Of a DNA stretch of 64,000 nt, positions 5,618 through 63,909 are shown piece by piece. Numbering within the stretch: the stretch's first letter is position 1; each line of letters opens with the position of its first letter. Where the stretch lies: positions 361,376 to 425,375 of the forward strand of contig JAWLHK010000001.1 in NCBI GenBank assembly GCA_041690355.1, in the 5' to 3' direction. The translations under genes and the position numbers were made by a program. A model generated the notes under the pieces. That model was not told the origin of the DNA. It did not search any database and was given only the letters and a program-made list of their open reading frames with translations. The stretch comes from a bacterium (GTDB lineage Bacteria > J088 > JAWLBW01).

Positions 5618-5896
5618 ATGGCGAGTACAGAACCTACGGCGCCCCAGGTGTCGATGACCCGGCTCATCGTGACGATTGCGGTTTTCGTCGTCATCGGATT
5701 GCCCATGGTCGGCTACCTGTGGGAAACGCTCAACGGCGTGCTCGCGCTGCGGAGCAGCTGGCAACAGGTGGGGATCGCGATTCCCGTCCTGGCCGTCTTT
5801 CTCGTGCTGCTCTTTCTGCTGGCGCGCACGATCGAGCGGTGGAACGACGGAGCGTCTTCACGGGCCGGCCGCGCCGGCGGAGGGAGTCATGGCTGA
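5618..5896 (+). CDS. Small 2-TM membrane protein, function unknown (first gene of the oxidase cluster)
   Basis: Two hydrophobic helices. RBS AGAGAGG upstream. Overlaps the next gene by 7 nt. Confidence 0.45.
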   Translation: MASTEPTAPQVSMTRLIVTIAVFVVIGLPMVGYLWETLNGVLALRSSWQQVGIAIPVLAVFLVLLFLLARTIERWNDGASSRAGRAGGGSHG

Positions 5897-6540: not shown

Positions 6541-8207
6541 GCGCGACAACTTCGATTGTCCTCGATCCCCTGGGATTCGACCTTCCCCGCGATCACCGCC
6601 GGGCCATCCGGTGGACGGTCTATGTCGGCTATCTCGCCCTGACGGCCGGGATCTTCCACGGCCTGGCCCAATCGCTCTCCTACGCGAAGATCGACATCCT
6701 CGAGTACTTCCCCTTTCTGCGCAGCTACTACCAGGGGCTGACCGCGCATGGCGTGGCCAACGCGCTGATCTTCACGTTCTCGTTCAGCAACGCCTTTCTG
6801 CCCCTGATGACCGCGCGCGCCCTGAGCGCGAAGTTGAGCGGGTTTCTGCTCTGGCTCTCGCTCGATCTGCTCATCGCGGGGAACATTCTCGTCATCTATG
6901 CCGTGACGACGAACCAGGCCAGCGTTCTCTACACGTCCTATGCGCCTCTCCAGGCCCACTGGACGTACTATATCGGACTGGTCCTTGTGGTCGTCTCGAC
7001 CTGGGTGGCGCTGGTGAACATGCTCGGCGTCTACCGGCGATACCGCAAGGCTCATCCGGACGCGCGCGTTCCGCTGCTCGCGCACATCGCGGTCATCAGC
7101 TACGTCATGTGGTTTCTGGCCTCGCTGCCGATCGCAACCAGTTTCCTCGCGTTTCTCACCCCTTGGACAGTGGGGTTGACCGAGAAGACCGATCCGCTCT
7201 TCATCCGCACACTGTTCTGGTTCACGGGGCACGCCATCGTCTATGCATGGCTGCTTCCGGGCTACGTTTCCTGGTACGCCACTGTGCCGCGCCTGGCAGG
7301 GGGGAAAATCATCAGTGACCCGCTGACGCGCTTCGTGTTCATCCTCTTTCTGCTCTACTCGATTCCGACTGGATTCCACCACCAGTACACCGACCCCGGA
7401 ATCAGCACGACGATGAAGGGGATCCACGCCGTGCTGACCTTCATCGTCTTTTTTCCAAGTCTGGCAACGGCGTTCACGATGATGGCGGCCCTCGAGATGG
7501 GCGGCCGTCGCCACGGCGGCACCGGCCTGTTCGGGTGGATCCGCAAGATCCCGTGGGGCGACCCATCACTTGCGGCACAGGTTCTGGCCATGATCACGTT
7601 CGTGTTCGGCGGCATCACGGGCCTGATCAACGCAAGCTTCACCATGAATCAGGTCATCCACAACACGACCTGGGTCCCCGGGCACTTCCACATGACCGTC
7701 GGGAGCGCGGTCGCCCTGACCCTGATGGGTGTCGCCTATTGGATGATCCCGTATCTGACGGGACGCGCGCTCTTCAGCCGCACCATGGGGCTGGCTTCTT
7801 CATGGATTTATACGATCGGGGTGCTCATCTTCGCGCGTGGCATGATCTCGGCGGGGCTCGCGGGCATGCCGCGGCGGACCTTCATCGCCCAGGCGACGTA
7901 CTACCGGGAAGGCTGGGAGCTTTCAGGGGCGATTACGGCCGTCGGCGGAACGCTCATGTTCATCGGCATCGCCCTGTTCTTCATCGACATGCTGCTGACC
8001 ACCGTGGCGGGAAAGAAAGGGGCCGGCCCACGCGACATCCCGCTTTCGTCGACACTGTTCGCTCCGGCGCGCCACGGATGGGAACGGCACCTCGACCGAC
8101 TTGGCTGGTGGGTCGTGGCGGCCATCGCGCTGATTCTGATCGCCTACGGGCCGTTCTTTCTGACCTACGCGCCGCGCTTCGTTTCGCCAGGCTTTCAGAT
8201 CTGGTAG
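6537..8207 (+). CDS. cbaA: Cytochrome c oxidase subunit I, B-family (ba3-type heme-copper oxidase)
   Basis: Polytopic protein of 556 aa. GHFHMTVGS and other conserved His-containing helices of heme-copper oxidase subunit I. Overlaps the subunit II stop (ATGA). Confidence 0.85.
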   Translation: MSATTSIVLDPLGFDLPRDHRRAIRWTVYVGYLALTAGIFHGLAQSLSYAKIDILEYFPFLRSYYQGLTAHGVANALIFTFSFSNAFLPLMTARALSAKLSGFLLWLSLDLLIAGNILVIYAVTTNQASVLYTSYAPLQAHWTYYIGLVLVVVSTWVALVNMLGVYRRYRKAHPDARVPLLAHIAVISYVMWFLASLPIATSFLAFLTPWTVGLTEKTDPLFIRTLFWFTGHAIVYAWLLPGYVSWYATVPRLAGGKIISDPLTRFVFILFLLYSIPTGFHHQYTDPGISTTMKGIHAVLTFIVFFPSLATAFTMMAALEMGGRRHGGTGLFGWIRKIPWGDPSLAAQVLAMITFVFGGITGLINASFTMNQVIHNTTWVPGHFHMTVGSAVALTLMGVAYWMIPYLTGRALFSRTMGLASSWIYTIGVLIFARGMISAGLAGMPRRTFIAQATYYREGWELSGAITAVGGTLMFIGIALFFIDMLLTTVAGKKGAGPRDIPLSSTLFAPARHGWERHLDRLGWWVVAAIALILIAYGPFFLTYAPRFVSPGFQIW

Positions 8208-17632: not shown

Positions 17633-17652
17633 CCTGACGCGCCAGCGTCAGG
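17633..17652. terminator. Perfect hairpin between convergent genes (thioesterase / yebC-like), candidate bidirectional terminator
   Basis: CCTGACGC-GCCA-GCGTCAGG, overlapping the yebC-like stop codon. Confidence 0.5.
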
Positions 17653-18385
17653 TAAGGTTGTGAAAGACTTTCTGGACGTCGTCGTCCTGCTCGAGGCGGT
17701 CGACCAGCTTGAGCACTTCCTGCGCGGCTTCGTCCGAGAGCTCCACCGGCGTCGTCGGTATCCACTCTACTTCGGCGCTGACGGGCGTGATCCCCCGATC
17801 TTCGAGGGCCTTCTGCAGTGTGCCGAAATCGGCGAAGGCGCAGCGGATCACCAGGATGTCCTTGCCGTCATCGGTCGTGCTCTCGCCCATCTCTTCGAGC
17901 CCGTGGTCGATCAGCTCGAGCTCGAGCTCGTCCTGGTCGACTCCCTTGGGGTCGATCTTGAAGACCCCCATCTTCTTGAACTGGAACGCCACGCTCCCCG
18001 ACGTTCCCAGATTCCCGTGGCCGCGGTCGAAATGCGAGCGCATGTTCGCCACGGTGCGCGTCGGATTGTCGGTCGCGGTCTCGACCAGGATGGCGACGCC
18101 GTGAGGGCCATAGCCCTCGTACAGAATCTCGCTGTAGTCTTCCTTGTCCTTGCCCATCGCCCGCTTGATCGCGCCTTCAACCCTGTCCTTGGGCATGTTG
18201 ACGCTCTTGGCGTTCTGCAGGCAGCGGCGCAAGGCCGGGTTCGAGGCCGGATCGGGGCCGCCCGCCTTGACGGCGATGACGATCTCCTTGCCGATGCGCG
18301 TGAACTGCTTGGACATCTTGTCCCAGCGGGCGAACATCGTATGCTTGCGCGTCTCAAATATGCGTCCCATAAAAGCCTCTGACAC
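17648..18385 (-). CDS. YebC/PmpR-family transcriptional regulatory protein
   Basis: About 245 aa. N-terminal basic helix ([20 protein letters not shown]) and three-domain YebC-like composition. An alternative start 15 nt downstream. Confidence 0.7.
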
Positions 18386-40450: not shown

Positions 40451-42202
40451 CTACAGAAGCGCAAGGCCGGCAAGGAGCGCGAAAAAGAAAAGCAGCGAAC
40501 CCACCAGATACGCGCTCTGCGGCCGTGAACGATCGGGGCTGTAGGCTTCGCGCCGGGTGATGGGCCGACCGGCGGCCAGGGAAAGAAGCCAGGGGGCCGG
40601 GTGGCGGGCCCGCTCCGAGAGCGCGCGCGCCAGTGAAAGCACGAGGTGCTCGGTTCCCTGAAAAAGACGGCCGGGGCCTTCGAGAAAGACCGCGCGAAGC
40701 AAGCGGGCCGACCGCCGGTAAACCCAGTCGACATCGAGCACGACGCCGACACTCGGCACCGACAGGGCGCGCAGCGCAAAAAAGGCGACGAAGGTCATGC
40801 CGAGCAGCTGCACCGACTCCACCAGATGCGCGACCGTATACGGCTCGTAGGCGGCGTCGAAGGGAAGATAGCGGTAAAGCAGATCGGGATAGACGCCGAA
40901 AAGCAGGCACAGCGCAGCGAGCAGCCCCATCGCCGCCGTCATGTTCGCCGGCAGCCGGGCGACCTGCACCCCGCCGGTCAGATTTTCGCGGAACCAGGTG
41001 ATGAAGGGGACTTTGAGGCCGATGGAAAGAAAGGTGCCGACGGCGGCCAGCTGCAGCAGCCACATGACCGGATAGCGTTGATCATACAGTGCGCCGCTGA
41101 CGACCATCGACTTGCTGATGAAGCCGTTGAAGAACGGCACGCCGGAGATCGATACCGCGCCGACCAGGTAGAGCCAGAACACGGCGGGCATGCGGCGCAT
41201 GGCCCCCGCCAGGTCGGTGAGCCGCGTCGTGCCCGTAGCCTGCAGCACGGCGCCCCCCGCCATGAAGAGCAGCGCCTTGTAGAGAATGTGGCTGAAGGCG
41301 TGCGCCACCGCCCCGTTCAGCGCGAGCTGCGTGCCGATGCCGATACCGGTCACCATGTAGCCGACCTGGCTGATGATGTGGTAGCTGAAGATGCCGCGCA
41401 GGTCATTCTGCAGAAAAGCGTAGACGACGCCGAAGAGGGTCATGGCCACGCCCAGGACGACGAGAATCTCCCAGCCGGGAAACACCCGGGCCAGCGCATA
41501 GACGGCGGTCTTGGTCGTGAAGGCGCTCAGAAACGCCGCACCGGTCACCGTGGCCTTCGGGTAGCTGTCGGGGAGCCACGCGTGCAGCGGCAGCATGGCC
41601 GCGTTCAGGCCGACCCCGGCGAGCAGAATCCAGTTGCCGATGCCTCCGTCGTCGGCGAGCGGCGCCACGGCGAGGCTTCCGGTCGCGCCGACGTGAAGGG
41701 CGATGCCGCCGAGCAGGAGCGCGCCGCCGACGATGTGGAACACGATGTAGCGCAGGCCCGCGCTATCGGAGGCCTTCGTTCCGCGGGCCCAGATGAGCAC
41801 GGTCGACGCGACGGCCATCAGTTCCCAGAAGAAATAGAAGGTAATCCAGTCGCCCGCGAAGGTCACTCCGAGCGAACCGCCCGCATAGGCGAGCGCCGCC
41901 GACTGCTGCCGGCGGTCGTCGATGTGCAGCGCGTAGATCCCCCCGGCGAAAGCGATGAAGGCGAAGATGACGCCGAAGATGCGGCTCAGGGCGTCGGCGC
42001 GCACCGGTTCGAGGGTATAGTGCAGCCACGCAAACGAAGCGTGCACGCCGTCGGGCAGGGTCCACAGCAGCGCCAGCGCGCCGAGGGGGAACAGGAGAAA
42101 CGCCTTTGCACGCACGGCCTTCGGGAGCAGCGGCACGATGACGGCGCCGAGCAGCATGAGCACGCCCGGCGGCAGGCTGTGCAGAGTCCACTCAACGTTC
42201 AT
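40451..42202 (-). CDS. Antiporter-like membrane subunit (complex I NuoL/M/N / MrpA-D family) lacking the MrpB-like C-terminal domain
   Basis: About 14 TM helices. Conserved proton-pumping-subunit motifs (WLPDS, TGAAFLSAFTTK). Confidence 0.75.
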   Translation of the reverse strand: MNVEWTLHSLPPGVLMLLGAVIVPLLPKAVRAKAFLLFPLGALALLWTLPDGVHASFAWLHYTLEPVRADALSRIFGVIFAFIAFAGGIYALHIDDRRQQSAALAYAGGSLGVTFAGDWITFYFFWELMAVASTVLIWARGTKASDSAGLRYIVFHIVGGALLLGGIALHVGATGSLAVAPLADDGGIGNWILLAGVGLNAAMLPLHAWLPDSYPKATVTGAAFLSAFTTKTAVYALARVFPGWEILVVLGVAMTLFGVVYAFLQNDLRGIFSYHIISQVGYMVTGIGIGTQLALNGAVAHAFSHILYKALLFMAGGAVLQATGTTRLTDLAGAMRRMPAVFWLYLVGAVSISGVPFFNGFISKSMVVSGALYDQRYPVMWLLQLAAVGTFLSIGLKVPFITWFRENLTGGVQVARLPANMTAAMGLLAALCLLFGVYPDLLYRYLPFDAAYEPYTVAHLVESVQLLGMTFVAFFALRALSVPSVGVVLDVDWVYRRSARLLRAVFLEGPGRLFQGTEHLVLSLARALSERARHPAPWLLSLAAGRPITRREAYSPDRSRPQSAYLVGSLLFFFALLAGLALL

Positions 42203-42416
42203 CCCAGTACTCCTCGGGACGCTGCAGCAGGGCGGCGACCACTTTCTTGCCGATGACGATGACCAGCGCGCAGCCGGCGAAGCCGAACAGGCCGACGGCC
42301 AGCGGAATCGTCTCCCACCAGTAGGGTTCGTGTCCCCCCTCGGCGGGATGATAGTACTGCCCCGCGACCGAGAGGGCCATCAGGATGCCGAATGCGATCC
42401 AGCCGGTGCGGCTCAC
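42192..42416 (-). CDS. Small 2-TM membrane protein inside the Mrp-like cluster
   Basis: GTG start with a GGAGGG RBS; GTGA overlap with the upstream gene stop. Corresponds to the C-terminal part of spurious ORF 42192..43814. Confidence 0.4.
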   Translation of the reverse strand: MSRTGWIAFGILMALSVAGQYYHPAEGGHEPYWWETIPLAVGLFGFAGCALVIVIGKKVVAALLQRPEEYWDER

Positions 42417-43906
42417 AGAATTCCCTCCACCACCATGCGCGCGAAGGCGTAGAAACGCGGACCGAGGTCGGGCGCGATACCGAAGATCACGGCCAGCAGC
42501 GCCGTGCCCACCAGGGGCGCGACCATGAGCACCGAGGCTTCGCCATGTTCGGCATAGCGCCCCTCGACATCGGCGCGGAAAAAGGCCCGGTGGATAATCG
42601 GAAAGAAATAGGCCACGTTGAGCACGCCGCTCAAGAGAAGCACGACGAGCGGAATCCACAGACCCGCCTCGAGGCTCCCCGCGCCGAGCAGCCACTTGCT
42701 GGCGAACCCATAGATGGGCGGAATGCCCGCCAGCCCCATGGCGCCGATGGAAAAGGCGCCCATCGTCCACGGCATGGCTTTGCCGATGCCGTCGAGTTCG
42801 CTGATATTCTCGCGGTGCACGTTCACGTAAATCGCGCCGGCGCAGAAGAAGAGCGTGATCTTCATGACGGCGTGGCTCGCGATGTGCATGAGCCCGCCGA
42901 CCATGCCGGTCGTCGACAGCAGCGCCGCGCCGAGCACGATGTACGATAGGTGGCCGACGGTCGAATAGGCGAGCCGGCGCTTGAGGTTGTCCTGGCGCAT
43001 GGCGAGCAGCGACGAGACAAGAATCGTCGTGCCGGCCAGTACGAGCAGCAGCGTGTTGAGCCCGAAGCGCGTCATCACCTCGGGGCCGAAAACGAAGCCC
43101 ACGACGCGGTAAACGCCGAAAACCCCCGACTTGACGACGGCCACGGCGTGCAGCAGCGCGCTCACGGGCGTGGGCGCGACCATGGCCGACGGGAGCCAGC
43201 TGTGCAGCGGCATGATGCCCGCCTTGACCCCCACGCCACCGAGAAAGAGCAGAAAGAGTGCCAGCGCGGTGCCGCCATCGAGCGCGGCGGCGCCGAGAAT
43301 GCCCCCCGGCACGAAGTCGAGCGTGCCGACGAGGTTCCACGTCCACACCGTCGCGACGATGAGCAGGTTGCCGGCGGTCAGCGTATAGACGAGATACTTG
43401 CGCCCGCCCCGCTTGGCCTCTTCGGTCTCCTTGTGGATGACGAGTGGATAGGTCGCGATCGTCAGGACTTCGAAGAACACGAGAAAGGTGAGCAGGTTCG
43501 CCGAGAAGGCGATCCCGAGGGTCGCCGACAACGACAGCGCGAAGCTCGCGAAGAAGCGCGTCTGCCGCTTCTCGTGGTTCCCGCGCATGTAGCCGATGGC
43601 GTAGAAGGTCGTGAAAATCCACAGGCCCGAAGCGATGACGGCGAAGAAGATGCCCAGCGGGTCGGCACGCAGCGCGAAGACGACGCCGGGGGCGAGTTCG
43701 AAGAGGCTCGTTTCGGCGATCTTCCCGGCAAGGGCGTCGGGTATCAGGCTCAGGACGAGAGCGAACTTCGCGAAGGCCGCGAGCAGCGACCAGCCTTCGC
43801 GCAGGTTGCGCCACCGGTCGCTCAGCACGATGAGCGGCACGGCCGCGAGCGAGACCAGGATGGCCCAGAGGGGCACGAGCGAAGCGTACGTCACCGGGGC
43901 GTCCAT
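42413..43906 (-). CDS. Na+/H+ antiporter subunit D-like (MrpD / NuoN family)
   Basis: Polytopic protein of 497 aa. Conserved antiporter-subunit helices. Confidence 0.8.
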   Translation of the reverse strand: MDAPVTYASLVPLWAILVSLAAVPLIVLSDRWRNLREGWSLLAAFAKFALVLSLIPDALAGKIAETSLFELAPGVVFALRADPLGIFFAVIASGLWIFTTFYAIGYMRGNHEKRQTRFFASFALSLSATLGIAFSANLLTFLVFFEVLTIATYPLVIHKETEEAKRGGRKYLVYTLTAGNLLIVATVWTWNLVGTLDFVPGGILGAAALDGGTALALFLLFLGGVGVKAGIMPLHSWLPSAMVAPTPVSALLHAVAVVKSGVFGVYRVVGFVFGPEVMTRFGLNTLLLVLAGTTILVSSLLAMRQDNLKRRLAYSTVGHLSYIVLGAALLSTTGMVGGLMHIASHAVMKITLFFCAGAIYVNVHRENISELDGIGKAMPWTMGAFSIGAMGLAGIPPIYGFASKWLLGAGSLEAGLWIPLVVLLLSGVLNVAYFFPIIHRAFFRADVEGRYAEHGEASVLMVAPLVGTALLAVIFGIAPDLGPRFYAFARMVVEGIL

Positions 43907-43907
43907 C

Positions 43908-45404
43908 TCAGCCGAGCCCCCCGGGCAGCATGGGGCGGATAAACGTTTCGACGATCCACGCGTTGGCCAGGCCGAGCGCGAGCAGGCCGAAGGCGAGCAG
44001 GAGCGTCGGCACGATCATGGCGGCGCCGACCGGCGCGGTGAGCTCGGGCTGCAGTTCGACCTTGCGTTTGGCCTTGCCCGCCGCCAGGTAGACGCGCTCG
44101 AGAACGCGCCAGAAATAGACGGCATTCAGCAGGCTGCTCACGACGATGACTGCCAGCAGAATCCCCTGCCCTTTTTCGAGAATTCCGAGGGCCAGGTACC
44201 ACTTGCTGAAGAATCCCGCCGTGGGGGGAATGCCGACCATCGACAGCGCGGCGACGGTGAAGGCCGCCATCGTCCACGGCATGCGGTGGCGGATGTCGTC
44301 GTCGAGCGCGTCGATCTGCGAGTGTCCGAGCCGGGTGCGCAGATTGGCGGCCACGAGAAAGAGGGCCCCCTTCATGACCGCGTGATTGAGAATGTGCAGC
44401 ACGGCGCCGACGAAGCCGAGCGGATTCGCGAGCCCGATGCCGAGACCGATGTAACCGACCTGCGCGACGGAACTATAGGCGAGCATGCGTTTCAGCTCGC
44501 CCTGTGCGATGGCCATGACCGAGCCGACGATGATCGCCACGGCCGAAAGCCAGAGCACGACCCCGGTGACCGGCACAGCCTGCGTCACGTACGAGAGAGG
44601 GAATACGTAGAAGAGGAAACGCAGAAGTCCGTAGGCCGCCACCTTCGTGCCGACCGAGGCAAGCAGCGCCGACGTCGTCGAGGGGGCGAATGTATAGGCG
44701 TCGGGCAGCCAGCCGTGCATGGGAAACAGGGCCATCTTGAGCGCCAGACCGGCGGCGATGAGGGCGAGCCCGACCACGATGATCGGCGTCGCCCCGACGA
44801 CCGGGATGGCGGCAGCCAGATCGCCCATGTTCAGCGTCCCGGTCGCCATGTAGAGAAAGCCGACGCCGAGCAGATAGAACGATGCGCCGAGCGTGCCGAG
44901 AAGCAGATAGCGGAACGCGGCCACGGGGCCCGGCCGGTCGCCGACACCGATGAGCGCGTAGCCGGCAAGCGAGGAGATTTCGAGAAAGACGTAGAAGTTG
45001 AAGGCGTCGCCCGTCACGACGATGCCGCTCAGCCCGAAAAGAAGCAGCAGCGCCATCGCGTAGAAGGGACTCTCCCTGCCCGGGAGTTCGCGCCGCACCG
45101 GAGAACCGCCGTGCACGAGCACGAAGAAACCCGCCGCGCAGATGATGACGGATAGAAAGGCGGCGAGCGGATCGAGCACGTACTCGATGCCGATTGAAGG
45201 GGCCCACCCGCCGAGACGATAGCGCACCGTGCCCTCGGTGGCCACGTGCACGAGCGCGATCACCGACACCGCACTCGCGGCGGCCGACGCCGCGAGCGCT
45301 GCGGCACGGCTCCACGCGGCGCGCCGCCGGCCGACCAGCGGCGCGAGCAGCGCTCCGAAAAGAAAGAGGAGCGGAATGAGGACGGGCGCGTGCCGGACCA
45401 TCAT
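43908..45404 (-). CDS. Na+/H+ antiporter subunit D-like (MrpD / NuoM family), second copy
   Basis: Polytopic protein of 498 aa. Same family as the two neighbouring genes. Confidence 0.8.
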   Translation of the reverse strand: MMVRHAPVLIPLLFLFGALLAPLVGRRRAAWSRAAALAASAAASAVSVIALVHVATEGTVRYRLGGWAPSIGIEYVLDPLAAFLSVIICAAGFFVLVHGGSPVRRELPGRESPFYAMALLLLFGLSGIVVTGDAFNFYVFLEISSLAGYALIGVGDRPGPVAAFRYLLLGTLGASFYLLGVGFLYMATGTLNMGDLAAAIPVVGATPIIVVGLALIAAGLALKMALFPMHGWLPDAYTFAPSTTSALLASVGTKVAAYGLLRFLFYVFPLSYVTQAVPVTGVVLWLSAVAIIVGSVMAIAQGELKRMLAYSSVAQVGYIGLGIGLANPLGFVGAVLHILNHAVMKGALFLVAANLRTRLGHSQIDALDDDIRHRMPWTMAAFTVAALSMVGIPPTAGFFSKWYLALGILEKGQGILLAVIVVSSLLNAVYFWRVLERVYLAAGKAKRKVELQPELTAPVGAAMIVPTLLLAFGLLALGLANAWIVETFIRPMLPGGLG

Positions 45405-45769
45405 GGCATGCGCTCCAGAATCTGGTCTTCCTCGATGGACCCGTAGCGCCTGAAGATCGTGATGAGCAGCGCGAAGGCGACCCCCATCGTGGCCACGCCC
45501 ACGACGATGGCCGTCAGCATGAGCGTATGGGGGAGCGGGTTGATGTACTGATCGGGAGCCGCTCCGTAGGCCGAATCGAGAATGGGGATCGTGGCCGTCT
45601 GCGACTTGTTCGCGCTGGCCACGAAGAAGAGGATGATCGTCGACTGAAAGATGCTGAGGCCGATCAGCTTCTTGACGAGATTCGCCTTGAACAGCATGCC
45701 GTACATGCCGACGAGCATGAGCAGGACGATGAAGAAATAGGCGTAATGCCCGCGCACGAACTCAAGCAT
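45401..45769 (-). CDS. Mrp antiporter subunit C (NuoK homologue)
   Basis: Three TM helices, 122 aa. ATGA overlap. Confidence 0.8.
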   Translation of the reverse strand: MLEFVRGHYAYFFIVLLMLVGMYGMLFKANLVKKLIGLSIFQSTIILFFVASANKSQTATIPILDSAYGAAPDQYINPLPHTLMLTAIVVGVATMGVAFALLITIFRRYGSIEEDQILERMP

Positions 45770-46202
45770 GATCGTCGGGCTCCGTCAGGTCGTCGTAAAG
45801 GGAGACCAGCGTGGCCGCCACGGCGATGGCGACGCCGATTTCGACGGCCAGAATGCCCATGGACCGCAGCGCCGGCCCCTCGAGCAGCGGCACCGGAATG
45901 CGCGCGTAATCCAGATAGAAGCCTCCGCCGGCGAGCGCGGCCAGGCCGACGAGCGCGTAGATCAGCGTGCCCGCCGAGCTGAGCGGCGTGCCCCAGCGGC
46001 GCGGAAACTGCAGGGCGCCCAGCTCGGAGCCGAGACCGAGGCGCACGAGGATGACCGAGGCGGCGAACATGGCGCCACCCTGAAAGCCGCCCCCCGGGCT
46101 GTAGTGGCCGTGCGCGACCACGTACAGGGCGTATACCTGGATGACCGGCGCGAGCCAGCGCGCCCCCATGGAGAGAATCGGACTGCCGGGCGCGCGCCTC
46201 AC
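45762..46202 (-). CDS. Mrp antiporter subunit B (MnhB domain)
   Basis: HGHYSPGGGFQGG motif. By my indexing of the raw text the start is a GTG about 2 nt from the ORF-track coordinate. Confidence 0.75.
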   Translation of the reverse strand: MRRAPGSPILSMGARWLAPVIQVYALYVVAHGHYSPGGGFQGGAMFAASVILVRLGLGSELGALQFPRRWGTPLSSAGTLIYALVGLAALAGGGFYLDYARIPVPLLEGPALRSMGILAVEIGVAIAVAATLVSLYDDLTEPDDHA

Positions 46203-46495
46203 GACTGCCTCCGGCGCAGAATAAGGTAGCAGGCCATGCCCGCCGTGAAGACGACCGACGTCTCGCCCAGCGTGTCGTAGCCGCGGTAATCGGCCAGGAT
46301 GACGGTCACGATGTTGGGCGTCTCGGCGTCGGCATACGCCTGTTCGACGTAGTACGATCCGGCCACCGGCGACCCGGCGGGGGTCTGCGCGCGCTGGGCG
46401 GGGGCGTTCACGTCAAAGCGGGGCGGCAGCGCCGCGACCGCGTACAGCATGAGCGCGCCGAAGCCGAGCAGGAGAATGGCAGAGAGAGCTTTCAA
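46199..46495 (-). CDS. Small membrane subunit (MrpB N-terminal-like / Mbh-type small subunit)
   Basis: TTG start. One TM helix plus a periplasmic segment. Lies inside the cluster with 4-nt overlaps. Confidence 0.5.
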   Translation of the reverse strand: MKALSAILLLGFGALMLYAVAALPPRFDVNAPAQRAQTPAGSPVAGSYYVEQAYADAETPNIVTVILADYRGYDTLGETSVVFTAGMACYLILRRRQS

Positions 46496-46734
46496 TCGTT
46501 GGTTTTCCGTGTCGTCTGAAAGATGTCTACGATGAAGAGCACCGACGTCACGCCGGCGCCGACGACCGCCTCGGTGAATCCGACGTCGACGGCCCCCATG
46601 GTCACGAAGAGCACGGCGCTGAAGAAGCTGAACACCCCGGTAGCCACCGAGGCCGCCAGCAGATCGGTTTCGCGCAGGCTGATGACGGCGGCGGCGAGCA
46701 GGAAGATGAACAATGCGACTTCGATCTCGATCAT
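46492..46734 (-). CDS. DUF4040 / MbhD-like small membrane subunit
   Basis: 80 aa, two TM helices, within the split-Mrp cluster. Confidence 0.55.
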   Translation of the reverse strand: MIEIEVALFIFLLAAAVISLRETDLLAASVATGVFSFFSAVLFVTMGAVDVGFTEAVVGAGVTSVLFIVDIFQTTRKTND

Positions 46735-47084
46735 GCGCCCTTCTCCTTTTCAGCCCCGCCTGAACGGCCGCTGTCGACGAACCACGGACGCAGGCCGTAG
46801 TCCCAGGCGCTCTTGGCCAGTGCGTGGGTGCCGATGGGGTTGGCCATGCCGATGAAGAGCATGGTCAGCAGAATCTTGACCGTATTCAGGCTGAAACCCT
46901 GGTAGATGGCCATGCCGAGCAGCACGAGCATGATGCCGAGCATATCGCTCTTGGCAATGGCGTGCGCGCGGGAGTAGAAATCGGGAAAGCGGATCAGCCC
47001 GATGCTGGCGACGAGCAGAAAGAAGATGCCGGAGAGCACGGCGGCGACGGCCAGACCGTTCTGAATCCACTCGAGCGCGCTCAT
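46731..47084 (-). CDS. Mrp antiporter subunit G
   Basis: RAHAIAKSDMLG motif (RxHAxxK...TLG) typical of MnhG/PhaG. Confidence 0.75.
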   Translation of the reverse strand: MSALEWIQNGLAVAAVLSGIFFLLVASIGLIRFPDFYSRAHAIAKSDMLGIMLVLLGMAIYQGFSLNTVKILLTMLFIGMANPIGTHALAKSAWDYGLRPWFVDSGRSGGAEKEKGA

Positions 47085-47347
47085 GAGGGCTCACCTGGTT
47101 CGAAGTACTTGGCGATGGCGACCACGCCGATGAAGCCGAGAATGGCGTAGGCGAGCGTGATATCGGCGAACATGTCGAAACGTCCGTAGGCGTGGCCGAT
47201 GAGGGCCACGATCACGAGCGTCTTCGTGCTCAACGCCGAAGCCGCGAGCAGCCGGTCGAAAACGGTGGGGCCGCGCCGTACCCGGTAGAACGGAAGCAGC
47301 ATGACGAGCACGATGGCCGCGGCGGCGAAGGAGAAGAACGATTCCAT
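47081..47347 (-). CDS. Mrp antiporter subunit F
   Basis: 88 aa, three TM helices, between the G and E subunits. Confidence 0.65.
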   Translation of the reverse strand: MESFFSFAAAAIVLVMLLPFYRVRRGPTVFDRLLAASALSTKTLVIVALIGHAYGRFDMFADITLAYAILGFIGVVAIAKYFEPGEPS

Positions 47348-47928
47348 CAGAGGTCCTTCACCGAGCGGATGATGCGGACGTCCTCGATCAGGGCGCCTTC
47401 ACGCGTACCCTCGAACAGCTCGCCGATCTTGGCCGACATGGAGCCGTCGATGAGGCTGGCGTAGGCTTCGGGGTTCAACCCGTGAACGAGAAATTCGTCT
47501 TCGCGGATGGCGATGGTCAGCGTGCCCGGCATGATCGTGATCGATTGCGCGAGCACGAGATCGGCCCCTACGCTGGGCAGGCGGCTGTTAAAGCGCAGCA
47601 GCACCGGCTCAATCGGCACGCGGGAGGGAAACATCACGGCGCGGGCGACGGCGAGGCTCGCCTTGACGATCTCCCACGAAAGCCAGGGAAAGTAGAGGAT
47701 GGCCTTGACGAGACGCACCCGCGTCCATTCGGGCTTGGTGCGCGTGCCGTAATCGAGCTGATAGAGGCCGTGGTTCAGCACGAGTACGAGCGCCACCGAC
47801 ACGATGCCGAGCGTGATGTGAAAGGTATCGTAGTGTCCGCTCAACAGGAGCCAGAGCGCCATGAGAAACAGGGCGCGGACGACGATCCGGCTTGCGCCGA
47901 CCTTTTCGAGTGTTGCTTCTCTGGCCAT
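47347..47928 (-). CDS. Mrp antiporter subunit E
   Basis: Two N-terminal TM helices plus a soluble domain. Start reassigned to MAREATLEK. Confidence 0.65.
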   Translation of the reverse strand: MAREATLEKVGASRIVVRALFLMALWLLLSGHYDTFHITLGIVSVALVLVLNHGLYQLDYGTRTKPEWTRVRLVKAILYFPWLSWEIVKASLAVARAVMFPSRVPIEPVLLRFNSRLPSVGADLVLAQSITIMPGTLTIAIREDEFLVHGLNPEAYASLIDGSMSAKIGELFEGTREGALIEDVRIIRSVKDL

Positions 47929-48061
47929 GGGCGAACGCGGCGGGCACTCCGTGTATGAAGGACCACGGGTAAGAACCGTACGGAAGATACAGTCTACCAG
48001 CCGCGCGCCGCCAGGTTCCAAAAAATCGGCGCAGGCGTGCGATTCGTTTTCCGCCTCGGCG

Positions 48062-49498
48062 TCAACGCAGAGGTCGGTACCGCAGATAGACAGGCGAGGG
48101 CGAGAACTGCATGGCCGGCTCGAGGGCCAGGGCGCCGCCGGTCATGTCGACGGCCGACTTGAGCGCGAATCCCTCGATCTGCGGCGGCGCGAATCGCAGG
48201 CCCTGCCCGAGTCCGGCGTGCCAGGCGGCCACGGTCAGATCGGCACCGCGACGCGCGGCCACGAAGCGCAGACCCAGCGGTCGCGCCTCAGAATCGACGG
48301 CGTCAGTGATATCGGCGAAGGCGTCTGCCGTACCCAGCTCGGCGAGCATGGCCGCCAGCGCGTACCAGCCGATCTTGGGCTGCGGCGGGTTGGCGCCGTC
48401 GCGAAGGTAATCAAAGGGGAGCGCCGGATCGCCGGGCCGCACCAGTCCGAACCAGGCCTCGGTCGGAACCAGCACGTTGGCGGTCGATTCGTAATCCCAG
48501 AAGGTGTACCAGTCGTACTCCTTGACCCCGGCGGCAAAGCTGAGCAGCGCCCCGCGAACGAGGTAGCGGGCCTGCGACCGATCGTCGACCAGGAGGCCGG
48601 TCGGCCAGCCGTTTTCGGTGATCCAGAGTTCGTGGCCGCGCAGGCCCAGGCGGTCCATCGTTTCGCGCATCGTGCGGATCATGGCGACGATGTCTTCGTC
48701 CCAGCTCCCTTCCATCTCCGGCGGGTCGCCCGGCGGGTAGGGCTTGTAGGGGTGAAACGAGACCGCGTCATACAGTTCCGGAAGGTCGGGGTGCGCGGCA
48801 ACGACGGCCTCGAGAAACCGGGGCGCGCCGGGCACGACGGCGTAGTCGTGATAGAACAGGCCGCCGAGCGCCAGCTTCGCCTCCGGGTTCCCCTCGCGAA
48901 CCGCTTCGGCTCCGATGCGGGCGAGCGTGCCGAACGCGACCGGGTCGCCGCCGATATCGGACATCCAGAAGCGGTAGCCGCCGTTGGGCTCGTTCCAGAA
49001 CTCCCAGCGCGAGATCAGCGTCCGGTAGCGCTCAGCCACGGCGCGCGCGTACGGGCGCAGGGCCTCGGGATCGTCGGGCGGGTAATGATGATCGTGCCGG
49101 GCCGCCCCCTCGGCGCTGTAGAGCGGATTGCCGTAGGCGATGACGCCGAGCATCGACTGGCCCGCCGCGGCAGCTTCCTGAAGAGATTCCTCGTCGGGGA
49201 ACTCGAAGACGCCCGGAGTACGTTCGGTCTCGACCCAGAGTACTTCGTGGCGATAGTGACTCAAGCCGATCCCGGCCGCCGCTTCGATCTGCCAGCGCCG
49301 CTGCGCGTCCCATTTGGGACTGCCGCGCCGCAGGGGAGCCGCAAGGCCGAATGCATCACGCATCGGGCGCCCGAGCTCGACCCAGACGGGCGCGACGGGC
49401 GGGGGGCCATTCGCGGCGGGCGGCGGAACCTCTTCGCGAGCGCAGGCCGACAATACGATCGCGATCGCCGGTATCCAGAAAGCATACGCGCGGCGCAT
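48062..49498 (-). CDS. Glycoside hydrolase clan GH-A (GH5-like) lipoprotein
   Basis: Lipobox IVLSAC. Acid/base motif WEFWNEPN. Nucleophile motif ITENGW. Confidence 0.6.
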   Translation of the reverse strand: MRRAYAFWIPAIAIVLSACAREEVPPPAANGPPPVAPVWVELGRPMRDAFGLAAPLRRGSPKWDAQRRWQIEAAAGIGLSHYRHEVLWVETERTPGVFEFPDEESLQEAAAAGQSMLGVIAYGNPLYSAEGAARHDHHYPPDDPEALRPYARAVAERYRTLISRWEFWNEPNGGYRFWMSDIGGDPVAFGTLARIGAEAVREGNPEAKLALGGLFYHDYAVVPGAPRFLEAVVAAHPDLPELYDAVSFHPYKPYPPGDPPEMEGSWDEDIVAMIRTMRETMDRLGLRGHELWITENGWPTGLLVDDRSQARYLVRGALLSFAAGVKEYDWYTFWDYESTANVLVPTEAWFGLVRPGDPALPFDYLRDGANPPQPKIGWYALAAMLAELGTADAFADITDAVDSEARPLGLRFVAARRGADLTVAAWHAGLGQGLRFAPPQIEGFALKSAVDMTGGALALEPAMQFSPSPVYLRYRPLR

Positions 49499-50096: not shown

Positions 50097-51284
50097 TCAA
50101 TCGCGGCGGTACATGGTCACGACGGCGGCGCCGCCGAGACCCAGGTTGTGCTGCAGCCCAACCTTGGCCCCTTCGACCTGCCGCTTGTCGGCCGCGCCGC
50201 GCAGCTGCCAGTTCAGTTCTGCGCACTGCGCCAGACCGGTGGCGCCCAGCGGGTGCCCCTTCGAGAGCAGGCCGCCCGACGGATTGACCACCGCGACTTT
50301 GCCGCCGTACGTGAAGGCGTCTTCGTCGATGTACTTGCCGGCTTCGCCCACCGGGCAGAGGCCGAGGCCTTCGTAGGTGATCAGTTCGTTGGCCGAGAAG
50401 CAGTCGTGCAGCTCGACGACGTCGACGTCTTCAGGTCCGAGGCCGGCCTGCTTGTAGACGCTGGCGGCGGCTTCCTTGGTCATGTCGAAGCCGATGCACT
50501 TGATCATGCTGCTTTCTTCGAAGCTCGAGCCGTAGTCGGTCGTCATGGCCATGCCGGCGATGTAGACCGGGTTGTTGTGGCCGTGCTTCTTCGCGAACTC
50601 CTCGGAGCACACGATGGCGGCGCCGGCGCCGCAGGTCGGCGGGCAGCACTGATAGCGCGTGAGGGGATCGAAGACCATCGGCGCGGCCAGAATCTCTTCG
50701 AGCGACATTTCCTGGCGGAAAAGCGAGTACGGGTTGTGCACCGAGTGCTTGCGGTTCTTCACGGCGATCTTGGCGAGCTGCTCGCGGGTCGTGCCGTACT
50801 TCTCCATGTGTTCGCGGCCGCCGCCGCCGAAGAACTGCGCCGCCGGGGGAGCCATCGGCTCGTACCCCTGCTTGTTCAGCATGACTTCGACGTGCTTGTC
50901 CATCGGGTTCAGGCGATCGGTGAACTTGGAGCCGAGGGCGCCCTTCTCCATCTTCTCGAAACCGAGCGCCAGCACGCACTCGGCCAGGCCGCCCTCGACG
51001 AGCTGCTTCGCGAGAAACAGGGCGGTCGAGCCGGTGGAGCAGTTGTTGTTGACGTTGTAGACCGGAATGCCGGTCAGGCCCATCTCATAGACGGCGCGCT
51101 GGCCGCAGGTGCTGTCGCCGTAGACATATCCGACGGCGGCCTGCTGCACTTCCTTGTAATCGATACCGGCGTCCTTCAGGGCCATCGCCGTGGCCTCGCG
51201 CGCCATTTCGTTGTACTCCGGGCTCGTGCCCGGCTTCGTGAAGGGCGTCATGCCGACGCCGATAACACAGACTTTCCGGCTCAT
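50097..51284 (-). CDS. SCP2-type thiolase / lipid-transfer-protein-like acetyl-CoA C-acyltransferase
   Basis: Thiolase Cys regions (NVNNNCSTG and [10 protein letters not shown]). GAGGAG RBS before the reassigned ATG. Confidence 0.8.
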
Positions 51285-51383
51285 CGTTGCTCCTCGAGGG
51301 GGAAAAGGAGGCGGGCGGATGACACCCACCATGGGCGTACCTACCGGCCAGTAGATTCATCATAGCGGAAGCTCAGGGCGCGG

Positions 51384-59521: not shown

Positions 59522-60457
59522 TCAGAGGCGGAACAGGGCATCGAGGAACAGGTCCTGCTCGTCGATCCACTGACGCTCGAGGCTGAATCCGGCCGTTTCG
59601 ACCAGCGCCGTGAGGCCGTCGGGCGTGTACTTGTGGGAACTCTCGGTCCAGATCGTTTCGCCGGCGTCAAAGCGCACCGACCATGCGAGTTCGCCGAAGG
59701 TCACCGTCTGCGCGCATCGGCTTACGAGATGCATCTCCACGCGGCCGGCCGCCCCATTCCACACGGCGCGGTGATCCCAGGCATCGAGATTGAAATCGGC
59801 CGCCAGCTCGGCGTTCAGGCGCACGAGAAGATTGCGATTGAAGGCCGCGGTCACTCCGAGCGGATCGTCGTAGGCGCGCACGAGCCGATCGGCCGGCTTC
59901 ACCAGATCGGCCCCGATCAACAGGCGATCACCGCGCCGCAGACGCAGGCGGAGTTCCGCCAGAAAAGCCTTCGCGGCAGCGGCATCGAAGTTGCCCAGGT
60001 TGGATCCGAGAAAGAGCACGGTCACCGGCCGGGCGCCCGCCCTGCGCGCGACGAGTTCGTCCAGGCCGGCTTCGAAGCGGCCCTCGAAGGGGATCGGTAC
60101 GGCCCCGGCGATCTCCTGGATGCGCGCCGCGGCGACCTCGAGGGCGCCGGCCGAGATGTCGACGAGACCGACGTCGACCGTCCCGTGCCGGTCGGTCAGC
60201 GCGCGGGCGAGCAGGGCCGACTTCTCTCCGTTGCCAGGGCCCAGCTCGATCAGCAGCGTCTCGGCCGGAAGGGCAGCGGCCATGGCGTCGGCGTGGGCGG
60301 CAAGCAGGCGCCCCTCGGCGCGCGTAATCGTGTACCAGGGGAGCGCGCAGATGGCGTCGAAGATGCGCGACCCGAGCGCATCGTAGAACCAGACCGGATC
60401 CATGCGGCGCGGGCGCGGGGACAGCCCGTCGCGAACGGCCCGTCCCAGTGCGCTCAC
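59522..60457 (-). CDS. egtD: L-histidine N-alpha-methyltransferase EgtD (ergothioneine biosynthesis)
   Basis: WFYDALGS ... LPWYTITRAE signature of EgtD/Methyltransf_33. GTG start 13 nt after the egtB stop, chosen so that the conserved N-terminal helix is included. An alternative ATG at 60403. Confidence 0.8.
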   Translation of the reverse strand: MSALGRAVRDGLSPRPRRMDPVWFYDALGSRIFDAICALPWYTITRAEGRLLAAHADAMAAALPAETLLIELGPGNGEKSALLARALTDRHGTVDVGLVDISAGALEVAAARIQEIAGAVPIPFEGRFEAGLDELVARRAGARPVTVLFLGSNLGNFDAAAAKAFLAELRLRLRRGDRLLIGADLVKPADRLVRAYDDPLGVTAAFNRNLLVRLNAELAADFNLDAWDHRAVWNGAAGRVEMHLVSRCAQTVTFGELAWSVRFDAGETIWTESSHKYTPDGLTALVETAGFSLERQWIDEQDLFLDALFRL

Positions 60458-60470
60458 GCTTTCGTTCCGA

Positions 60471-61733
60471 TCAGGCGGATTCGTTGAGGTCGCCGGCGCA
60501 GCGGAAGGTGGTGTAGGCATAGGAGTAGGCGTCGCGGTACCAGTTGCGGAAGCTCGGGCGCAGCAGCGGCCGGGCCGTGACCGGCGAGCCGCCTTTGACG
60601 ACGTGATGGGTTCCGTCGAAGAAATCGGCGCTGTAGCCGGGATAGTACGGGCGCGGCCGGAAACCGGGGAGCCCCGCGAAGACCGATGCCGTCCACTCCC
60701 AGCCGTTGCCCACCGGCTCGACAATACCCTCGGCGGTCACGGGTGCGTCGTCGCGGCCGACCGGCGCGCTCTCGAGCACAATGTAATCGACGGCGCCCGC
60801 CTCCGGCGGTCCGGAATGGAACGCGGCCGCGTGAAATTCCGCTTCGGTCGGCAGGCGCAGCCCGCGCCAGCGCGCATAGGCCTCGGCCTCGTGAAAACTG
60901 ACGTAGACGGGCATGCCGAGCGGCAGCGGGCGCAGACCGAAGAGGCCGCGCAGCAGCCAGCCGTCATCCCCCGATTCTCCCCGGGGAATCCAGAAGGGGG
61001 GGTGGCGGCCGGGACGTTCTTCGAGGGCGGCCCAGCCGGCGTCGCTCCACCAGCGGTGATCCGCGTATCCGCCCGCGTCGAGAAAGGCGAGAAAGTCGCC
61101 GTTGGTCACCTTGTGCGCCTCGAGACGAAAGGGGGGCACGTCGACCGTGCAGGCGGGAAACTCGTTGTCCCAGCCGAAGGCGGCGGAGTCCGGGCAGCCG
61201 AGAGTGACGCGTCTGCCGGGAACGTCGCACAGCTTGCGCGCGGGAGACGGCGCGTCTTCGGGAGGGGCGTACCGGGCGGGGGGGCGCTTGTAGCGGGGGT
61301 CGAGCCGGTGCAGGAGGTAGATCAGCGTCTCCTGATGCATCTCCTCATGCTCCACACAGGTGAGAAGAATCTCGGGACGTTCACCCGACCGCACGGCATC
61401 GAGCATGAGCCCGTCGACCACGGCGACATAATCGCCCACCCAGGCGCGCTCGGGCCAGGCGTCGATGCGCAGGGCGCCCGCCTGCGTGGTGGATTCGGGA
61501 TCGATACCCCGGGCGAACAGATCGCTCAAGGCGGGCTCGGGGCGCCGGGGGAGCAGTCCGGCGGCGTGCAGCAGGTTCGCGTTGAACGCCGCGAGGTGAC
61601 CCTCATAGAAACGAAGCGGATGCCGGAGCGGTATCGGCCGGGCATCCCAGGCCTCGGAGAACTCGGGCGCAATCCAGGTGAAAATGTCCCGGGTGCGGCG
61701 GCGCATGGCAATGAAGCGTTCGACCAGATCCAT
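60471..61733 (-). CDS. egtB: Ergothioneine biosynthesis sulfoxide synthase EgtB (DinB_2 plus FGE-sulfatase domains)
   Basis: HEEMHQETL metal-binding DinB_2 motif. GNGWEWT FGE-domain motif. ATG with a GGGAGAA RBS. Confidence 0.8.
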   Translation of the reverse strand: MDLVERFIAMRRRTRDIFTWIAPEFSEAWDARPIPLRHPLRFYEGHLAAFNANLLHAAGLLPRRPEPALSDLFARGIDPESTTQAGALRIDAWPERAWVGDYVAVVDGLMLDAVRSGERPEILLTCVEHEEMHQETLIYLLHRLDPRYKRPPARYAPPEDAPSPARKLCDVPGRRVTLGCPDSAAFGWDNEFPACTVDVPPFRLEAHKVTNGDFLAFLDAGGYADHRWWSDAGWAALEERPGRHPPFWIPRGESGDDGWLLRGLFGLRPLPLGMPVYVSFHEAEAYARWRGLRLPTEAEFHAAAFHSGPPEAGAVDYIVLESAPVGRDDAPVTAEGIVEPVGNGWEWTASVFAGLPGFRPRPYYPGYSADFFDGTHHVVKGGSPVTARPLLRPSFRNWYRDAYSYAYTTFRCAGDLNESA

Positions 61734-62026
61734 GGTTCTCCCTGCAGACGGCTCTGCAAGCGTCAACTATATAGCGTCCCGGCCGTGCGGGTCAACCTGG
61801 ATGGGCATTCATGGGGACGGACCCGGGAAGATTCCGTTCGCCCCTGCCGCCGGACGCCGCTCGACGGCTGAGGGGAGGCCGGCCCGCGTGTTGCAATCTG
61901 GAACAGGTTTCGCGACGTACCCCAGCGCATACCCTCGATTCCGCCACGGGATCCGTTGAAAATGGAGGCTGGCACGCGCCTTGCTCGACCCCGAGGGAAA
62001 GGGAGCTCGATTTCTGGGTGCAAATG

Positions 62027-62053
62027 TTAGCACTCTCGCACCGCGAGTGCTAA
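62027..62053. promoter_or_regulatory. CIRCE element (HrcA operator) overlapping the rpoH promoter
   Basis: TTAGCACTC-TCGCACCGC-GAGTGCTAA is a perfect match to the CIRCE consensus TTAGCACTC-N9-GAGTGCTAA. The left arm doubles as a -35-like TTAGCA, and the right arm runs into a -10-like TAAAAT (62050-62055), 40 nt upstream of the rpoH ATG. Confidence 0.8.
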
Positions 62054-62095
62054 AATGATTCGAAAGGGAATTGTTTCTCCCAAGGAGTAGCAACC

Positions 62096-62941
62096 ATGTC
62101 CGCAACGTTAGCCCTGACCCATGAATTGGGCGCCTACCTCGCCGAGGTCGAGAAGTACCCGCTTCTGACGCCGGAAAAGGAGCGCGAGCTGGCGATCCGG
62201 TTCTACGACCACGGCGACCTCGAGGCGGCCCACGCGCTCGTGACGAGCAACCTGCGCTTCGTCATCAAGATCGCCCACGAATACCGCAGCTACGGCATGC
62301 GTCTGCCCGACCTGATTCAGGAGGGTAACCTCGGCCTGATGATGGCCGTGAAGAAGTTCAACCCGTACCGCGGCTACCGGCTGATTACCTACGGCGTCTG
62401 GTGGATTCGCGCCTACATCCAGAAGTACATCCTGCAGTCGTGGAGCCTGGTCAAAATCGGCACGACCCAGGCCCAGCGCAAACTGTTCTTCAAGCTGAAC
62501 CAGGCCAAGAACGCCCTGCGCAAGGGGACCGACGCCGATGCCACCGCCGACGTGCTGGCCGAGACGCTGAACGTGCGCGATCGCGACGTGCTCGAGATGG
62601 AGCTGCGCATGAGCGGCCGCGATTTCTCGCTCGACAACCAGCTCGGCGACGACGGCGACGCCACCTATCTGGATCGCCTCGAGGCCGAAGCCCCCGACAG
62701 CGAGCAGCTGCTCATCGACGCCGAAGAAGAAGAGATTCGCGAAGAAGGGGTGCAGAACGCCCTGGCGCGCCTGAACGAACGTGAAGCCTTCATCGTCGAG
62801 AAGCGGATTCTCGCCGAAAAGCCCGCCACCCTGCAGGAAGTCGGCGACGAGCTCCACATTTCCCGCGAACGCGTCCGCCAGATCGAGGCCGGCGCCCTCA
62901 AGAAACTCAAAGGTGATCTGTGTCCGGTGGTCTTGAACTGA
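62096..62941 (+). CDS. rpoH: RNA polymerase sigma-32 factor RpoH
   Basis: RpoH box QRKLFFKLNQAK. Sigma-70 regions 2 and 4. AAGGAG RBS. Confidence 0.85.
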   Translation: MSATLALTHELGAYLAEVEKYPLLTPEKERELAIRFYDHGDLEAAHALVTSNLRFVIKIAHEYRSYGMRLPDLIQEGNLGLMMAVKKFNPYRGYRLITYGVWWIRAYIQKYILQSWSLVKIGTTQAQRKLFFKLNQAKNALRKGTDADATADVLAETLNVRDRDVLEMELRMSGRDFSLDNQLGDDGDATYLDRLEAEAPDSEQLLIDAEEEEIREEGVQNALARLNEREAFIVEKRILAEKPATLQEVGDELHISRERVRQIEAGALKKLKGDLCPVVLN

Positions 62942-63909
62942 TCGAGGCCGAAGTCCGCGAAAAGGCGCTGCTCGTCAATCGCATTACCGAAGAAGTCGAC
63001 CGCGTGCTCGTCGGGCAGCGCGAGCTGCTCGAGGGGCTGCTCATCGGCCTGCTGACGCGCGGGCATGTGCTGGTCGAGGGGATTCCCGGCCTGGCCAAGA
63101 CGCTGGCCGTGAAGTCGCTGGCGGCGACCATTCACGCCTCCTTCTCGCGCATCCAGTTTACGCCCGATCTGCTCCCTGCCGATCTGGTGGGCACGCAGAT
63201 TTTCGATCCGAAGACCCAGAGCTTCCAGCCGCAGAAGGGCCCGCTCTTTGCGAACCTGGTGCTCGCCGACGAGATCAACCGTGCTCCCGCCAAAGTGCAG
63301 AGCGCCCTGCTCGAGGCGATGCAGGAGCGGCAGGTCACGCTCGGCAAGCAGACCTACGTGCTCGACGAGCCGTTTCTGGTGCTCGCCACGCAGAACCCCA
63401 TCGAGCAGGAGGGTACCTACCCGCTGCCCGAAGCCCAGGTGGATCGGTTCGAGCTCAAGGTCGTCGTGAACTACCCGACGGTGCGCGACGAACGGCTGAT
63501 TCTCGACCGCATGGCCGGCCTCGACGCGCCGAAGACCTCGCCGGTCGCGACCACCCAGGACGTGCTCGCGCTGCAGCAGGTCGTCGACCGCATCTACATC
63601 GATCCGCGCGTCAAGGACTACATCGTACACCTGGTGCACGCCACCCGGTTCCCGCGCGAGTTCGGCCTCGCCGCGCTCGACGGCATGCTCGCCTACGGAG
63701 CCAGCCCGCGCGCGTCCATCGCGCTCGTGAAGGCCTCGCGGGCCCACGCCTTTCTGCGCGGCCGCGGCTTCGTCACCCCCGACGACGTCAAGGCCGTGGG
63801 GCCGGCGGTACTGCGCCATCGAATCCTGCTATCCTATGAAGCCGAAGCCGAGGGGGTCAACGCCGACGAGATCCTCGGCCGCATTCTCCAGAGCGTCGAA
63901 GTTCCCTGA
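62920..63909 (+). CDS. MoxR-family AAA+ ATPase
   Basis: Walker A GIPGLAKT. AAA_3-type architecture, 329 aa. Confidence 0.85.
   Translation: MSGGLELIEAEVREKALLVNRITEEVDRVLVGQRELLEGLLIGLLTRGHVLVEGIPGLAKTLAVKSLAATIHASFSRIQFTPDLLPADLVGTQIFDPKTQSFQPQKGPLFANLVLADEINRAPAKVQSALLEAMQERQVTLGKQTYVLDEPFLVLATQNPIEQEGTYPLPEAQVDRFELKVVVNYPTVRDERLILDRMAGLDAPKTSPVATTQDVLALQQVVDRIYIDPRVKDYIVHLVHATRFPREFGLAALDGMLAYGASPRASIALVKASRAHAFLRGRGFVTPDDVKAVGPAVLRHRILLSYEAEAEGVNADEILGRILQSVEVP

Follow-up and report, generated by a model that had tools for sequence, protein, structure and literature searches.

A CIRCE element overlapping the putative rpoH promoter in a small group of metagenomic bacterial sequences

The 64-kb stretch of bacterial DNA analysed here (the window) carries an rpoH gene at positions 62096 to 62941 of the + strand, which encodes a sigma-32 factor of 281 amino acids. 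The gene was taken to be rpoH in the original prediction, and this assignment holds: its open reading frame reaches 340.8 bits against the NCBIfam equivalog TIGR02392 (rpoH_proteo), above the cutoff of 323.1. RpoH proteins contain a characteristic box between regions 2.4 and 3.1 with the motif Q(R/K)(K/R)LFFNL(R/K). The translation includes this box as QRKLFFKL (QRKLFFKLNQAK), and residues K129, L130, and F131 are invariant in the RpoH alignment (A1). About 7,900 homologs are found at E<=1e-30, and the named ones carry an RpoH annotation. The Shine-Dalgarno sequence AAGGAG (62082 to 62087, + strand) is located 8 nt before the ATG, and orthologs have (A/G)AGGAG in the same place.

The end of rpoH overlaps by 22 nt (62920 to 62941) the GTG start of a gene for a MoxR-type AAA+ ATPase (62920 to 63909, + strand), which was recognised by the Pfam families bpMoxR, AAA_3, and AAA_5. 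The identical overlap is called in six of the seven clade loci described below, and in the orthologous loci moxR heads a moxR-DUF58-x-batA-batB(VWA)-TPR cluster. Linkage of rpoH to moxR, as assessed by tblastn among the matches listed, is found at all seven clade loci and is absent from the other 82 loci fetched. The moxR gene is probably co-transcribed with rpoH.

Genes divergent from rpoH occupy 59522 to 61766 on the - strand. They comprise an egtD-like histidine methyltransferase gene, which scores 288 bits on TIGR03438, just below the cutoff of 290.9, and beside it a gene for an EgtB/OvoA/SenA-like sulfoxide synthase, which falls under all three cutoffs. The two represent a thiol-histidine (ergothioneine-type) biosynthesis pair, which is syntenic in L001, L002, and L085. 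Also present in the window, at 40451 to 48141 (- strand), is an Mrp-type Na+/H+ antiporter cluster that encodes three MrpD/NuoL-like subunits plus subunits C, G, and E. Comparison of about 40 high-GC3 open reading frames of the 64-kb window with NCBIfam gave no match to hrcA, groESL, or dnaK, and the window reading frames scanned included no recognisable NtrC-type AAA+ activator.

The CIRCE element is the 27-mer TTAGCACTCTCGCACCGCGAGTGCTAA at positions 62027 to 62053 (no strand assigned). It consists of a left arm, TTAGCACTC (62027 to 62035), a 9-nt spacer, and a right arm, GAGTGCTAA (62045 to 62053). In a motif scan of the window, all 18 specified positions fit the consensus TTAGCACTC-N9-GAGTGCTAA, so the exact match that had been claimed is indeed present. 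It is the sole CIRCE-like match in the 64 kb, even with three mismatches permitted, and 100 dinucleotide-preserving shuffles yield a mean of 0.01 chance matches. Counted from the rpoH ATG, the element covers positions -69 to -43, with 42 nt between its end and the gene, and so belongs to the rpoH promoter or 5' leader. To our knowledge, HrcA is the only protein known to bind this sequence. The element is real and almost certainly functional, and it is predicted to be bound by HrcA.

Orthologous rpoH genes are found at six further distinct loci (L001, L002, L083, L085, L086, and L087; L083 and L084 do not differ in the upstream region compared). With the window, these seven loci represent a small group of metagenomic sequences whose RpoH proteins are 69 to 76% identical. 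CIRCE occurs at all seven, 63 to 82 nt before the ATG, and is perfect in six and has one mismatch in L001. The DNA around CIRCE is unalignable among the seven loci. When the sequences are anchored on CIRCE, the left arm has a mean pairwise identity (n=7) of 0.97 and the right arm one of 1.00. The values fall to 0.40 in the spacer, 0.30 over the 30 nt upstream, and 0.29 over positions +4 to +30. The length of the spacer is 9 nt in every ortholog, and the three bases 3' of CIRCE are AAT at 7/7 loci (identity 1.00). No compensatory or covarying stem changes occur across the seven orthologs, which implies that the identity of the bases is constrained, and not their pairing alone. Such conservation of the arms is the pattern expected of a site for a sequence-specific DNA-binding protein.

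Because a perfect 9-bp stem can give a stable hairpin, the inverted repeat might instead be a terminator or attenuator, an RNA thermometer, or the site of some other palindrome-binding regulator. However, no run of T residues follows the stem, the region contains no terminator-like site, and the upstream egtB-like and egtD-like genes, being divergent, cannot be terminated here. A search of Rfam with the rpoH leader revealed no family at E<=1. Moreover, the stem shows no covariation, and its conserved bases equal the pan-bacterial HrcA consensus. We therefore consider such another purpose extremely improbable, and an HrcA operator is the reading adopted here.

CIRCE also contains sequences that resemble a sigma-70-type promoter. 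A promoter scan places a -35-like TTAGCA (62027 to 62032, + strand; 4/6 to TTGACA) in the left arm, and an extended -10 element, TGcTAAAAT (62048 to 62056, + strand), combines the final six bases of the right arm with the adjacent AAT, and has its TG at 62048 to 62049. The TTAGCA and TAAAAT (62051 to 62056) hexamers are separated by 18 nt, and the combination scores 9/12 with the TG. The -35 is weak and the spacer suboptimal; the -10 matches at five of six positions and, with its TG, qualifies as an extended -10. This CIRCE-embedded site is the only sigma-70-like one that a consensus promoter scan finds on the + strand across 61700 to 62200. No other conserved -35 exists upstream of CIRCE in the seven orthologs, where the only conserved element is a distal motif, and inspection by eye of the sequence upstream of the window's CIRCE revealed no sigma-32-type or sigma-E-type promoter. 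Also, the interval from the right arm's TAA to the ATG at 62096 holds no in-frame start.

The original prediction that CIRCE spans a -35-like hexamer and runs into a -10-like TAAAAT is supported by comparison, in that TAAAAT is invariant in the clade and, as described below, TAAnAT recurs at distant loci. The AAT is invariant although the CIRCE consensus does not extend to it, which argues that the TAAAAT hexamer is used as a -10. On the basis of these sequence features, CIRCE probably doubles as an extended -10 sigma-70-type promoter of rpoH.

The distribution of CIRCE at rpoH was surveyed in 79 named genomes, starting from 80 rpoH loci that are an essentially arbitrary sample among the matches listed in a search of a genome collection with the RpoH alignment. 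The 300 nt upstream of each rpoH were scanned, and CIRCE was counted at up to two mismatches; two Geobacteraceae loci were fetched separately and added. Among the matches listed, CIRCE is found at rpoH in 16/16 loci of Betaproteobacteria, 13/30 of Gammaproteobacteria (plus two with three mismatches), and 3/6 of unclassified Proteobacteria/Pseudomonadota. Both of the separately fetched Geobacterales loci have it. Also among the matches listed, it is found in none of ten loci from other 'delta' lineages, six from Myxococcota, three from Bdellovibrionota, five from Alphaproteobacteria, two from Nitrospirota, and one from Dadabacteria. The gammaproteobacterial positives in this sample of the matches listed include Dyella, Arenimonas, Alcanivorax, Woeseiaceae, and Steroidobacteraceae, and the negatives are enterics, Pseudomonas, Vibrio, and Acinetobacter. 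CIRCE-negative loci among the matches listed have best matches with five to nine mismatches, which equals the background distribution, so that presence and absence are clear-cut. The arrangement recurs in other phyla, and Permina and Gelfand reportedly described CIRCE at rpoH in beta-proteobacteria in 2003. In one surveyed locus (L044), a perfect CIRCE at rpoH (5823 to 5849) is accompanied 2 kb away by a second perfect one before groES-groEL (8024 to 8050), which is also followed by AAT. A single genome, unrelated to that of the window, thus has the operator at both targets.

These data also bear on whether the palindrome could be a relic or a chance match that no regulator recognises, in a genome that has no hrcA and in which all control of rpoH is post-transcriptional, as in E. 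coli. HrcA and CIRCE have been lost in some lineages, for example in D. psychrophila (PMC545781). However, the low chance expectation noted above, the near-perfect arms across seven lineages whose neighbouring bases are only about 30% identical, and the lack of intermediates between CIRCE-bearing and CIRCE-less loci among the matches listed all speak against this possibility, since a relic would decay. We consider it highly improbable.

The Betaproteobacteria and many non-enteric Gammaproteobacteria resemble the window clade in that a consensus CIRCE is located 60 to 180 nt before rpoH, and its right arm supplies an extended -10, even though their RpoH proteins are only 40 to 48% identical to that of the window. 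Among the matches listed, the three bases 3' of CIRCE conform to nAT at 27 of 34 beta- and gammaproteobacterial rpoH loci (background 0.05), which yields TGcTAAnAT. The design in which the right arm is joined to nAT is thus recurrent, and not unique to the clade.

The E. coli rpoH promoter P3 is of the sigma-E type, GAACTT-N16-TCnnA. A similar sequence, GAAC[TC] (often GGAACTT), is found at a fixed 16 to 17 nt from the terminal TC of the left arm at 24 of the 34 beta- and gammaproteobacterial loci among the matches listed, for example in L019 (5835 to 5870), L037, L053, and L026, compared with a background of 0.04. This motif looks like a sigma-E-type promoter, GAACTT-N16/17-TC, that overlaps the HrcA operator in these bacteria. 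In contrast, GAAC[TC] is absent at all seven loci of the window clade, which have a sigma-54-type motif instead.

The sigma-54-type -24/-12 motif of the window, TGGCACGCGCCTTGCT, is located at 61970 to 61985 (+ strand), 42 nt upstream of CIRCE, and matches TGGCACG-N4-TTGCW at 12/12 positions. It is the sole match in the window at one mismatch or fewer, where 0.51 are expected. Six of the seven orthologs have a motif of equal GG-N10-GC spacing upstream of rpoH. It scores 11/12 in L087 (at about -127 relative to the ATG) and L002 (-178), 10/12 in L086 (-107), and 9/12 in L001 (-143) and L085 (-227); the background of matches of at least 9/12 is 0.07 per 250 nt. On both strands of 210 kb of clade sequence, only three matches of at least 11/12 exist, and all are at rpoH. 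The predicted sigma-54 start lies near 61996, which would place CIRCE at about +32 to +58 of the transcript. The original prediction overlooked this motif, and the CIRCE-embedded promoter is probably not the sole promoter of rpoH.

It is conceivable that the HrcA site is real but lies off the working promoter. The sigma-54 start near 61996 would then be dominant, HrcA would act as a roadblock, or the CIRCE hairpin in the leader would tune mRNA stability, or both, and the likeness to -35 and -10 hexamers would be a by-product. The conservation of the sigma-54-type motif is consistent with this possibility, as is the fact that the right arm inherently holds TGnTAA, so that part of the -10 likeness comes free. 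CIRCE is also downstream of a separate promoter in Geobacter and Geotalea, and rpoH is known to be served by sigma-54 elsewhere: E. coli rpoH has such a promoter (P6; Janaszak 2007, as cited in PMC2939334), and the RpoN regulon table of PMC4987338 lists rpoH of Salmonella. The E. coli promoter is similarly a -24/-12 promoter upstream of rpoH beside other promoters, but E. coli lacks HrcA and CIRCE, whereas the window combines the sigma-54-type motif with a CIRCE downstream. On the other hand, the invariance of AAT outside CIRCE in the clade, together with nAT at most of the distant loci among the matches listed, is hard to explain if the -10 is not used. Moreover, L083 lacks the sigma-54-type motif and yet keeps CIRCE with its AAT, and the fold of the leader is unremarkable apart from the CIRCE hairpin (z = -1.6). 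A dominant sigma-54 promoter with a displaced HrcA site is therefore unlikely in our judgement. Occlusion of a promoter by HrcA and a roadblock downstream of another promoter are compatible, and not mutually exclusive.

RpoH of G. sulfurreducens was the subject of an experimental study by Ueki and Lovley in 2007 that is cited in PMC2725144 and reportedly appeared in Microbiology 153:838. In this organism a perfect CIRCE has been listed at position -51 of rpoH (Rodionov et al. 2004, PMC545781, Table 8). As in the window, a perfect TTAGCACTC-N9-GAGTGCTAA stands roughly 50 to 70 nt before the rpoH start in Geobacter, and a hierarchy with HrcA over sigma-32 is implied in both. The two differ in detail. 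In the Geotalea (L088) and Geobacter (L089) loci, CIRCE is directly downstream of a separate sigma-70-type promoter (TTGAAA-17-TATATT in L089), whereas in the window clade the -35-like and -10 hexamers lie inside CIRCE itself. Also, neither a sigma-54 motif nor linkage to moxR is seen at the Geobacter loci. The original proposal that sigma-32 is wired beneath HrcA is therefore supported by comparison, but its implied novelty is mistaken, because the arrangement is published for G. sulfurreducens (PMC545781) and is widespread. Several papers in the literature that names both HrcA and rpoH make no mention of CIRCE at rpoH. The window locus is one more case of a known and widespread arrangement, and in this respect is ordinary. 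What is specific to this uncultured clade is that the hexamers are built into CIRCE, that a sigma-54-type motif is conserved, and that rpoH has a 22-nt overlap with a moxR-DUF58-batA/B operon.

The logic of HrcA binding and GroE titration that we apply here, like the transcription starts and the co-transcription that we propose, follows from what is established for HrcA and CIRCE in B. subtilis and other species. Classical targets, such as groESL and hrcA-grpE-dnaK-dnaJ in B. subtilis, have the same operator, and the repressor and the titration by GroE would by analogy be the same. The classical target is a chaperone operon, but the target here is the gene for a sigma factor, which leads to a two-tier cascade. 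In the absence of stress, GroEL/ES would maintain HrcA in its active state, and an HrcA dimer on the two arms would keep RNA polymerase off the promoter. The operator would be released once GroE is titrated by unfolded proteins or HrcA is directly inactivated by heat, and rpoH would then be transcribed together with the overlapping moxR-bat genes. Synthesis of sigma-32 would in this way be set below HrcA. For transcription from the sigma-54-type promoter, the HrcA-bound operator would lie in the path as a possible roadblock, and the leader of such transcripts would include the CIRCE hairpin. We regard it as quite likely that the element is a functional HrcA operator placed as the sigma-70-type promoter of rpoH, with occlusion by HrcA and derepression under stress as outlined.

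A more elaborate arrangement can be proposed tentatively, although it is rather less probable than not. HrcA would gate a composite operon, rpoH-moxR-DUF58-batA-batB, from a promoter made up entirely of its own operator, and the sigma-54 promoter would feed the same operator from upstream, so that protein-folding status, read through HrcA, and a second signal, read through a sigma-54 activator, are joined within one 90-bp region that sets sigma-32 and MoxR/Bat together. We know of no description of such three-regulator wiring or of a coupling between rpoH and moxR.

Repression through HrcA/CIRCE and activation through sigma-32 thus appear wired in series in one more lineage. Among the matches listed, Betaproteobacteria are wired in this way as a rule and Gammaproteobacteria commonly, and the wiring is no oddity. 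For annotation, the lesson is that CIRCE is to be expected ahead of rpoH, and the right arm followed by nAT represents a recurrent way to build an HrcA-gated extended -10 promoter. The sigma-54-type motif and the overlapping moxR-bat genes offer modest leads on the evolution of stress-regulatory networks, and open no long-standing question. Further work might be worthwhile only on the sigma-54 input and the coupling of rpoH to moxR-bat.

The taxonomic signal of the window differs from gene to gene. The nearest named relatives of its RpoH are found in Geobacteraceae, at 58% identity. Two other genes, at 17648 to 18385 and 50097 to 51332 (both - strand), encode YebC and a thiolase/lipid-transfer protein. 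YebC, which is too conserved for placement, is 76 to 77% identical to homologs from Chitinophagaceae, Binatia, and 'Deltaproteobacteria', and the thiolase/lipid-transfer protein is 82 to 88% identical to those of one clade, followed by Dadabacteria and Moraxellaceae at 74 to 76%. The contigs of L001 and L085 retain the gene order from the thiolase gene to rpoH, a distance of about 12 kb; L085 belongs to assembly GCA_041687475.1.

Variant CIRCE elements are found at rpoH in Lysobacteraceae and Nevskiales (L073, 5894 to 5920, and L020, 5888 to 5914). Both arms are changed symmetrically, to TTAGCAGTC-N9-GACTGCTAA, which suggests a lineage-specific shift in the half-site preference of HrcA.
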